IMG/VR virus record: IMGVR_UViG_2526164669_000027
Strand: one strand, 5' to 3'
Source: a virus
Lineage: Duplodnaviria > Heunggongvirae > Uroviricota > Caudoviricetes
Length of the DNA stretch: 48,145 nt
Part shown: piece by piece, positions 41,627-42,508 of the stretch
How the letters are laid out: every line of letters begins with the position of its first letter
Numbering within the stretch: the stretch's first letter is position 1
The notes under the pieces: model-generated
The model's database searches: none
What the model saw: the letters and a program-made list of their open reading frames with translations, nothing else
What the model was told of the DNA's origin: nothing
Made by a program: the position numbers and the translations under genes

Positions 41627-41729
41627 CCAGACACAAAACACAAAAAGAAACCAAAGTATCAAAAATCACTTGCCACACATTGATACCTTAGTTACCATAA
41701 AACAAAGTTCGTAACTGAGGTATCATCTC
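41627..41729. promoter_or_regulatory. OL/pL-like operator-promoter region controlling the leftward operon
   Basis: CCAAAGTATCAA (41651-41662), inverted TTGATACCTTAG (41681-41692), GAGGTATCATC (41718-41728). Confidence 0.5.
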
Positions 41730-42146
41730 ATGATCAATAAAGCTACAACTCTTGACTGTCTCGAAGAACTGAAAAACCTTGGCAGCCTCATTACACTAAT
41801 AGCAAAAGCAACACCAGATGCTACGCTCTCTAGCGATATAGAGTCATGCGCAGGACTGGCATGGGATATGACAAATAGCATATATAGAAAGCTATCGTCA
41901 GCAATGCTTTTACAGAACAAAAATTCTGCAATCAACAACCGTCTTCGCACCCAACGCGAAGCCTGCGGCTTAACAACAGCCGAACTCGCCAGGCTGTTCG
42001 ATCTCGATGAAGACATCATAATCCAGTGGGAGAGCGGAGAGTATGAACCAACTATCAGTATGCTTATCCCGCTGGCAAATGTTCTTGGTTGCGACCCGAT
42101 GTGGCTGTTAACCGGTAAACCAACAGCGGGAGATACTTGCGCATGA
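41730..42146 (+). CDS. hypothetical protein with C-terminal HTH (XRE-like) domain (138 aa); first gene of the leftward operon
   Basis: ..GLTTAELARLFDLDEDIIIQWESGEYEP.. HTH; GAGGT RBS. Confidence 0.6.
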   Translation: MINKATTLDCLEELKNLGSLITLIAKATPDATLSSDIESCAGLAWDMTNSIYRKLSSAMLLQNKNSAINNRLRTQREACGLTTAELARLFDLDEDIIIQWESGEYEPTISMLIPLANVLGCDPMWLLTGKPTAGDTCA

Positions 42147-42508
42147 AAAAGTTCGAAAACATAACTGTTCTCCATGTTGATAACTTTGATTATACAAACC
42201 AGGAACTTCTCCCGGAGGTTGTAAAGGCAATAGATGTAGCCGATATAGTGATTAGAGGAAAGAGAATTGTCAAAAACAGGCTCGCATGCACTTCAGGAGC
42301 AATGACAGAAACAACCTCACAACAAGATGATTATGAAGGCATTTGTCTGGAGCCTGATTCATTTGCGGTAAATGTTTATCATTTATTGCATGCAACACAG
42401 GTATTACATATGTCCAGTAATCACGAAACAAAAGTACTTGGCAGCGAAATTCTGAATTTTGCATGTGAATATGCAAAAGCTGCTGCCGAAAAAGAATTAG
42501 CGCAATAA
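42137..42508 (+). CDS. hypothetical protein (123 aa), translationally coupled to the HTH protein
   Basis: Start overlaps the upstream stop. Confidence 0.55.
   Translation: MRMKKFENITVLHVDNFDYTNQELLPEVVKAIDVADIVIRGKRIVKNRLACTSGAMTETTSQQDDYEGICLEPDSFAVNVYHLLHATQVLHMSSNHETKVLGSEILNFACEYAKAAAEKELAQ

Follow-up and report, generated by a model that had tools for sequence, protein, structure and literature searches.

Two small genes downstream of the cI repressor

The window analysed here is a 48,145-nucleotide stretch of viral DNA (IMG/VR record IMGVR_UViG_2526164669_000027), and the subject of this report is the pair of genes that follows its cI repressor gene (positions 41627 to 42508). On the + strand, cI is followed by a 103-bp spacer, by gene 1 (41730-42146), which encodes a 138-amino-acid (aa) helix-turn-helix (HTH) protein homologous to L10 of phage phiP27, and by gene 2, which encodes a 121-aa homologue of phiP27 L08. 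Small open reading frames (ORFs) lie 3' of the L08 homologue, and then genes for an SPFH lipoprotein, a DUF5406 protein and a DUF4222 protein, xis and int; the direction from cI to int is the 'leftward' direction of lambda. The region 40600-43500 shares 96-97% identity with prophages in approximately 120 complete E. coli genomes; its identity to the Shiga toxin 2e (Stx2e) phage phiP27 is 95.9%, and with this phage the window shares gene order and 96% DNA identity over the L11-L10-L08-L06 stretch. By these comparisons the window prophage is a phiP27-like prophage of E. coli, and the integrase adjoining it is of the type found at yecE in relatives. Sequence and synteny identify the two proteins as members of the L10 and L08 families (phrog_4739 and phrog_5451), and their genes appear as the first of a pL-like operon in phiP27-like and yecE-type lambdoid prophages. 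The pair stands where lambda has N, and would be the first to be expressed from the left early promoter, in widespread enterobacterial prophages; its carriers include Stx1-, Stx2a-, Stx2d- and Stx2e-converting phages. No ORF fits between the cI stop codon (41626) and 41730, which leaves this interval without a rexAB-like gene, as the original prediction from the sequence had stated.

Gene 1 consists of two parts. A Pfam scan placed an HTH_3 domain at residues 72-126 (E 2e-10) and found no family match for residues 1-65, in agreement with the earlier description of a C-terminal XRE-type HTH joined to an unassigned N-terminal half. The protein matches phrog_4739 (E 3e-83), which has no assigned function. 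In an AlphaFold2 (AF2) model with a mean predicted local distance difference test score (pLDDT) of 69, helices at residues 2-27 and 31-62 precede a five-helix XRE domain, and the closest fold matches of this domain were P22 C2, 434 Cro, C.AhdI, CapH, SinR and AimC (structure 9iaq). The modelled N-terminal hairpin is probably an oligomerisation or interaction domain. Most homologues of gene 1 are 215-231 aa long and carry a variable N-terminal domain followed by two tandem XRE HTHs. In the window protein, the first HTH is joined to the tail ...CDPMWLLTGKPTAGDTCA, which closes the second HTH in the tandem forms; the 138-aa protein thus represents the single-HTH form in a family whose members mostly have tandem HTHs. 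The full-length, 218-aa version with the window's N-domain type is represented by P0001 (93% identity). Among 95 loci, drawn from 80 IMG/VR contigs, annotated phages and genome contigs, single-HTH forms were found with all six N-domain types, and this recurrence rules out the 138-aa form as a one-off truncation. The polymorphism between one and two HTHs (window 41943-42146; P0001, P0042 and P0073) involves repeats of the type LAN[VA]LGCDP..., and the sequences make the single-HTH form look like the product of recombination between the two HTH repeats.

The protein encoded by gene 1 is acidic, with a net charge of -7 and an isoelectric point (pI) of 4.5. Its HTH core has a net charge of -6 and a pI of 4.1, as compared to +6 for the HTH of the phage's CI and +7 for the cro-position protein, and the tandem-HTH forms of the family range from -14 to -17. 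Acidity is shared by the first pL proteins of relatives in Klebsiella, Salmonella and Citrobacter, and some Salmonella family members that carry the N-module of gene 2 (see below) have a neutral or basic HTH and more conventional recognition helices. In an HMMER alignment with P22 C2, the C2 segment VSNVAISQWERSETEP pairs with LDEDIIIQWESGEYEP of gene 1, so that the recognition helix begins with D-E-D where C2 has S31-N32-V33. In C2-operator complexes, the first residues of the recognition helix contact DNA. The reference sequences of 434 Cro, P22 C2, SinR and DicA used in the charge comparison were approximate; the alignment with C2 was produced by HMMER.

The start codon of gene 2 that is kept in all homologues is the ATG at 42143, which yields a 121-aa protein and an ATGA overlap with the stop codon of gene 1. 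The overlap that had been proposed was thus upheld; the length of 123 aa given with it corresponds to a TTG at 42137, which is a possible alternative start. Gene 2 matches phrog_5451 (E 2.5e-82), another PHROG with no assigned function. Its AF2 model (mean pLDDT 73, approximately 90 in the hairpin at residues 74-120) comprises an N-module, a linker and a C-terminal two-helix hairpin, and fold searches with gene 2 returned nothing informative. The N-module is kept across genera. Ratios of nonsynonymous to synonymous substitution (dN/dS) showed purifying selection on both folded parts (0.24-0.35 for the hairpin and 0.26-0.42 for the N-module), and the linker gave approximately 1.2 in the comparison with L094 and 0.32 with L011. 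Translation from an internal ATG at 42302 (M54), which follows an AGGAG, would yield the hairpin alone as a 68-aa protein; this short form is the one annotated by RefSeq in SE11 and many other genomes, and M54 is not present in all 121-aa homologues.

Sequence comparison connected gene 2 with the gene 1 family. Using BLASTP, the hairpin aligned with residues 24-70 of P0073, one of the 230-aa c-type regulators, at 45% identity (E 5e-10), and hhalign comparisons with the regulator N-domains gave E-values of 3e-11 for type c and 7e-10 for type b/d. Profiles searched exhaustively against 1.84 billion representative proteins recovered only 41 clusters. The N-module is fused to a tandem HTH in P0208, P0210 and P0212, the hairpin is fused to an HTH in P0219, P0223 and P0226, and N-module and hairpin are combined in one protein in P0224. 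Since all three pairwise fusions of N-module, hairpin and HTH exist, they amount to Rosetta-stone-type evidence that genes 1 and 2 cooperate. As far as homology can tell, gene 2 is an HTH-less paralogue made of the two kinds of N-terminal module that occur in the family.

In every intact locus of the 95, an HTH-less hairpin protein is encoded after gene 1, at distances from a 4-nt overlap to a 578-nt gap and mostly in the adjacent position; the exceptions were two frameshifted copies, one deletion fusion and one truncated contig. The partner is the 121-aa L08 protein, a 66-aa hairpin-only protein, or a set of two or three free hairpin proteins of 63-66 aa. The seven loci without a detected L08 (L063, L065, L066, L068, L069, L072 and L075; e.g. 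L063 3919-4298) carry free hairpins that are homologous to the b/d-type and P0096-type N-domains, none of them to the loci's own type a. The order of repressor, acidic HTH protein and L08-like protein is also found in Salmonella and Klebsiella, and in Citrobacter an HTH-less helical protein of 93 aa occupies the first place. A scan of genome contigs, at one genome per species, found no relative. Judging from this distribution, the pair belongs to the conserved core of the early-left operon and is maintained in six immunity types and several genera, where a moron would vary; the earlier view that the two genes form a real linked pair is supported by their presence in essentially all relatives.

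The tight coupling of the two genes, also part of the original prediction, was confirmed for the window but is one of several arrangements. In phiP27, approximately 575 bp lie between L10 and L08 (L001 7498-8078, corresponding to window 42137-42146), and both junctions read CATGAAAAA; the insert contains an unannotated 80-aa ORF that is ATGA-coupled to L10, as well as L09 on the opposite strand. In SE11, a 167-aa gene 1 is followed by approximately 90 bp before L08. The possibility that the ATGA coupling of the window is a deletion artefact relative to phiP27 was rejected because the same overlap is native in L011 and L076-L088. From these alignments, phiP27 is better read as carrying an insertion, which looks like a moron gained or lost by short-repeat recombination.

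Spacers flanking cI and the edges of the immunity cassette

The 12-mer CCAAAGTATCAA has exactly two copies in the 48 kb, one in the cro/cI spacer (40912-40923) and the other after cI (41651-41662). When up to two mismatches were allowed, four copies were found against 3.85 expected, which is not above chance, and the signal of the 12-mer therefore rests on its exact copies and on the hexamer GTATCA/TGATAC. The two spacers that flank cI, 211 bp in total, contain five copies of this hexamer, as compared to 0.16 expected (approximately 30-fold; P about 7e-7). Thus, the claim that the 12-mer and GTATCA half-sites lie on both sides of cI proved correct. A 13-mer, AAYNNARKTATCA, recurs at 41649(+), 41681(-) and 41713(+), at a regular spacing of exactly 32 bp, and less strict copies lie at 40878, 40910 and 40934. 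Amid the 13-mers of the spacer after cI lies a promoter-like TTGCCA-17-TACCAT (-35 at 41670-41675 and -10 at 41693-41698), and the 13-mer at 41713-41725(+) overlaps the ribosome-binding site. In the cro/cI spacer, a leftward promoter-like site, TTGATA-17-TAACAT (40923-40895), overlaps the operator-like site at 40910. All three OL-like sites are kept in L003, in which the matching stretch has 84% DNA identity.

In two heteroimmune relatives, cI is followed by an intrinsic terminator and then by a TTGACA-17-TAATAT or TACTAT promoter (10/12), and heteroimmune relatives have their own cassette-specific repeats in both spacers. Taken together, the shared operator-like sites, the promoter-like site and these heteroimmune layouts permit the sound inference that the 103-bp spacer contains a CI-controlled pL-like promoter, and they bear out its earlier description as an OL/pL-like region. 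The terminator and operator-flanked promoter that precede the pair in other cassettes imply that it is repressed in lysogens. If CI does repress the spacer promoter, lysogens would not express the pair, in contrast to rexAB.

Clusters of CI and clusters of gene 1 N-domains corresponded 1:1 for six immunity types over the 95 loci, independent of the number of HTHs and of the form of the partner. Eight heteroimmune loci become homologous to the window in their DNA at 41937-41944, exactly the junction between the N-domain and the HTH of gene 1. In one comparison, with L080, the left edge of the cassette was at 40686, inside the cro-position gene. On the strength of these boundaries, the N-terminal hairpin of gene 1 is assigned to an exchangeable immunity cassette that ends at 41937-41944. 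The dN/dS of gene 1 was 0.12 in the hairpin, indicating purifying selection, and 0.04 in the HTH, where dS was saturated, so the near-invariance of the HTH between immunity types is not merely due to recent recombination. The 'immunity region' of these phages is thereby redefined to comprise cro, cI, the operators and one protein domain, and a cassette edge inside gene 1 predicts immunity-specific protein-protein recognition.

Two immunity types, represented by L077 (2668-3216) and L090 (repressor upstream of 3243), have repressors without an S24 domain. In both, the repressor ends in a helical C-terminus with an LP(T/E)xER/K-type motif, which in L090 we take to resemble the end of DicA, and the same downstream pair follows, each with its own N-domain type. 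At 41824-41843, within the type-a N-domain coding region of the window, a boxA-like CGCTCTCTA (41824-41832) overlaps a small hairpin (CTCTAGCGATATAGAG); the boxA-like string may be a coincidence. An AT-rich imperfect inverted repeat, AATAAATATT-CCCTG-AATGTTTATT, lies directly 3' of the L08 stop codon (42510-42534) and could be a protein-binding site in the constant region.

Comparison with known systems and rival explanations

Scans of both proteins and their neighbours with Pfam, PHROGs, NCBIfam and PADLOC returned a generic HTH for gene 1 and nothing for gene 2, and the Pfam, NCBIfam and PADLOC scans revealed no membrane segment, enzymatic domain or toxin domain in either protein. The view that neither gene is N-like was confirmed, as the scans gave no N match and gene 1 combines a net charge of -7 and a pI of 4.5 with an XRE fold and no arginine-rich motif. 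Gene 1 has no S24 domain such as a second CI/LexA-type repressor would carry, its HTH core is at -6 versus +6 in CI, and it gave no match to PF05269 (lambda CII) at E-values up to 0.1. With respect to RexAB/SieB exclusion or known defence systems, PADLOC matched gene 1 to a generic HTH and gene 2 to none. As for type II toxin-antitoxin systems, NCBIfam antitoxin models scored far below cut-off (HipB-like 25.9 vs. 71.65), and gene 2 matched no toxin family. Literature searches that covered Eru phages, the repressors of phiP27 and the lysis-lysogeny cassettes of Stx phages turned up nothing on these genes. The pair is uncharacterised in the literature searched, and the homologues seen carry generic labels ('hypothetical', 'HTH domain-containing', 'transcriptional regulator') or unverified ones, namely single records labelled 'putative CII repressor' and 'transcriptional repressor DicA' and PHROG 4836, 'CII-like regulator'.

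An XRE protein accompanied by a mimic of its non-DNA-binding module is a kind of system that has precedents. The small helical proteins SinI and AimX mimic or occupy the domain through which their XRE repressors, SinR and AimC, oligomerise, and AimX binding to the oligomerisation domain of AimC blocks DNA binding in a phage lysis/lysogeny module (bioRxiv 10.1101/2025.11.23.689978). Similar to SinR/SinI and SlrR/SlrA of Bacillus subtilis, an XRE protein with a helical hairpin (HTH_3 and the AF2 hairpin in gene 1) lies here beside a small HTH-less helical-module protein, and, as in SinR/SinI, paralogous modules form a small network. In contrast to SinR/SinI, the hairpin is N-terminal to the HTH, the setting is a phage early operon in Enterobacteriaceae, an alpha/beta N-module is added to the partner, the HTH carries a strong acidic charge, no similarity is detectable between the window's own hairpin and that of the partner, and the interaction is putative. 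The AimC/AimX module of arbitrium Bacillus phages likewise joins an XRE protein to a small helical partner, and AimC (9iaq) was among the fold matches. AimC, however, is the main repressor, whereas a separate S24-type CI is present here; there is no arbitrium signalling and no sequence relationship, and the partner gene is the downstream one in a shared operon, frequently with a stop/start overlap.

Lambda offers further points of comparison. Like N in lambda and the imm434 and imm21 cassettes, gene 1 is the first gene after pL and is cut by a cassette boundary, such that its N-terminus travels with cI, cro and the operators; unlike N, it is acidic, has an XRE fold and no arginine-rich motif, and gives no evidence of antitermination. 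An early HTH regulator with a small early-left helical protein as potential modulator recalls CII/CIII, but gene 1 has no PF05269 match, differs from CII in size and architecture and lies left of cI. RexAB and SieB/Esc occupy the same genomic neighbourhood, and SieB/Esc is a full-length protein with a truncated form of the same protein. In contrast to these systems, neither protein of the pair has membrane segments or effector domains, and the pair lies behind an operator-flanked promoter, outside the cI transcript.

Our preferred reading, which we hold tentatively and with somewhat less than even confidence, is that the pair constitutes a regulator and an HTH-less decoy in the lysis/lysogeny switch, similar to SinR/SinI or AimC/AimX. 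When CI is lost, or upon infection, the promoter in the 103-bp spacer would fire, and the ATGA overlap would cause both proteins to be made together. The HTH-less partner may then join, or compete with, hairpin-mediated assemblies of the regulator, and could thereby tune regulator activity in the lysis/lysogeny programme. If correct, the pair would add a new step at which prophage induction, and hence Shiga toxin output, is controlled, and would be an enterobacterial counterpart of SinR/SinI-type mimicry.

Several results weigh against a regulator and decoy of this kind. The gene 2 hairpin showed no detectable similarity to the window's own type-a N-domain (hhalign E 0.35), a direct BLASTP comparison of gene 1 with gene 2 found none either (E 2.1), and partner type did not co-vary with regulator N-domain type over the 95 loci, so cognate like-with-like contact is unsupported at the window locus. 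The acidic HTH, with D-E-D at the recognition helix, makes conventional DNA binding doubtful, and 'regulator' may be the wrong word. A by-eye search of the heteroimmune spacers found no common motif that would fit the constant HTH. The link between N-domain and immunity type could reflect mere physical adjacency. In addition, a terminator search found none after cI in the window cassette, and some expression in the lysogen by read-through is therefore possible.

The question of DNA binding also bears on a rather unlikely alternative, namely that gene 1 is an ordinary DNA-binding early regulator (a CII-like protein that activates lysogeny promoters, a second or Cro-like repressor, or a Mor-like activator) that dimerises through its hairpin, with L08 an unrelated small accessory protein whose hairpin similarity merely stems from the shuffling of a common helical module. 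Such a protein would agree with an XRE fold closest to P22 C2, 434 Cro and C.AhdI, with tandem HTHs that could read direct repeats, with the less acidic and more conventional recognition helices of the Salmonella relatives, and with the CII labels of one phage record and of PHROG 4836; it also gains from the absence of any PF05269 match among the early-region ORFs scanned. However, these labels are unverified and gene 1 itself has no PF05269 match. The acidic HTH, with D/E at the start of its recognition helix, is strongly constrained, and no conserved candidate site was seen by eye in the variable spacers. Universal adjacency, frequent overlap and the three pairwise fusions, moreover, tie L08 to gene 1 and speak against an unrelated accessory. 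The acidity finds a direct role if gene 1 is an immunity-specific protein antagonist (an anti-repressor, an anti-Cro or an early anti-defence protein) rather than a DNA binder, with L08 as modulator or decoy. Its hairpin would select the CI or Cro of its own cassette, and a basic DNA-binding surface would be masked by the acidic XRE domain or domains. We consider this quite unlikely, although the charges are suggestive (-7 for the 138-aa and -14 to -17 for the tandem forms, where the HTH of CI has +6 and the cro-like protein +7) and the relatives in Klebsiella, Salmonella and Citrobacter also have an acidic first pL protein, which in Citrobacter lacks an HTH altogether. The 1:1 correspondence of CI and N-domain, the sharp cassette edge at the domain junction in eight comparisons and the purifying selection on the hairpin are also in keeping with an antagonist, yet adjacency and recombination in the first conserved DNA also explain the linkage, no structural or sequence precedent was found, and family relatives with a neutral or basic HTH exist. 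In a bolder version, which we regard as a long shot, the acidic XRE protein is no transcription factor and antagonises its own CI or Cro via the swapped hairpin, and the free hairpins, mostly of a type other than the phage's own, are dominant-negative decoys that poison the counterpart protein in heterotypic, co-resident or superinfecting relatives. If true, Stx-converting and related prophages would compete with one another by subunit poisoning, and would encode the means for it in the centre of their immunity region.

The position beside cI is the site of rexAB, sieB and similar genes, and the original prediction had suggested a regulator with an effector or a two-gene exclusion module. We find it improbable that these repressor-proximal genes serve in superinfection exclusion or abortive infection or form a toxin-antitoxin module, with the HTH protein as antitoxin or regulator and its neighbour as effector, despite its location next to cI and an overlap coupling that resembles toxin-antitoxin operons. 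Read-through in the lysogen, possible because no terminator follows cI, would suit such a role, but the terminator and operator-flanked promoter of other cassettes imply repression there. Both proteins are small, acidic and soluble, with no toxin, nuclease, membrane, enzymatic or other effector domain and only generic HTH matches in PADLOC; gene 2 is built from the same module types as the N-termini of the regulator family, and the pair is a conserved core element rather than moron-like. The suggestion of an effector or exclusion module was therefore not supported. The free hairpins are mostly of a type other than the locus's own N-domain, which would fit decoys against heterotypic phages, and an exclusion-like role by such decoy action is possible. 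It is highly improbable that gene 1 fulfils the function of N, by antitermination or modification of RNA polymerase, with an N-terminal specificity domain matched to the cis elements of its cassette. It is the first pL gene, its cassette-specific N-terminus and constant C-terminus have a parallel in the N mosaic of lambda/phage 21 hybrids, and a boxA-like string is present; however, that string sits in variable coding region, the protein is acidic, has a different fold and lacks an arginine-rich motif, and no + strand terminators were predicted between 41730 and 43700.

Feature coordinates and other genes of the window

The features around cI are collected in Table 1.

Table 1. Positions of genes, gene segments and candidate control regions around cI (window coordinates).
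Feature	Coordinates	Strand	Description
cro-position gene	40649..40858	-	69 aa, net charge +7, divergent from cI; phrog_4749 (function not assigned)
OR-like region	40878..40946	.	three operator-like 13-mers (40878, 40910, 40934)
cI repressor	40967..41626	+	HTH_3 (Pfam E 1e-22) and Peptidase_S24 (E 1e-14); labelled 'LexA family protein' in relatives
OL/pL-like spacer	41627..41729	+	operator-like 13-mers 41649-41661(+), 41681-41693(-), 41713-41725(+)
gene 1, immunity-linked part	41730..41942	+	N-terminal two-helix hairpin (residues 2-62) and linker, type 'a'
gene 1, constant part	41943..42146	+	single XRE-type HTH (residues 72-128) and tail ...CDPMWLLTGKPTAGDTCA
gene 2, N-module	42143..42286	+	residues 1-48, beta-alpha-alpha-beta-beta (AF2), motif TADIVIxGxxVVKNR
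gene 2, linker	42287..42340	+	residues 49-66, predicted disordered (pLDDT <50), fast-evolving
gene 2, ND, C-terminal two-helix hairpin	42341..42508	+	residues 67-121 and stop; homologous to c- and b/d-type regulator N-domains

Further along the same operon (43648-45072) are a 62-aa membrane ORF, the SPFH/Band_7 lipoprotein gene (43833-44660) and the gene for the DUF5406 protein. These cargo genes are kept in some relatives and replaced in others, and they are more plausible candidates for exclusion or host-modifying cargo than the HTH pair. A ParE_like ORF is present in the early-left operon of relatives (L005 5645-5863; L101 5181-5399), and the window has none.

On the other side of cI, an IS3-family element (orfA 38860-39186, orfB 37973-38860; rve and HTH_21 domains) adjoins a truncated fragment of the Rha family (39238-39507), the two together spanning 37973-39507. 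The early-right operon of the window prophage therefore appears to be interrupted, and the prophage may be defective or mis-regulated. A 395-aa DUF4236 protein is encoded on the + strand (29542-30729) amid - strand genes, flanked by a DNA methylase gene (27807-28853) and by a 466-aa ORF (31516-32916), both on the - strand. The 466-aa ORF occupies the position of the replicative helicase of relatives, and the DUF4236 gene is possibly a moron.

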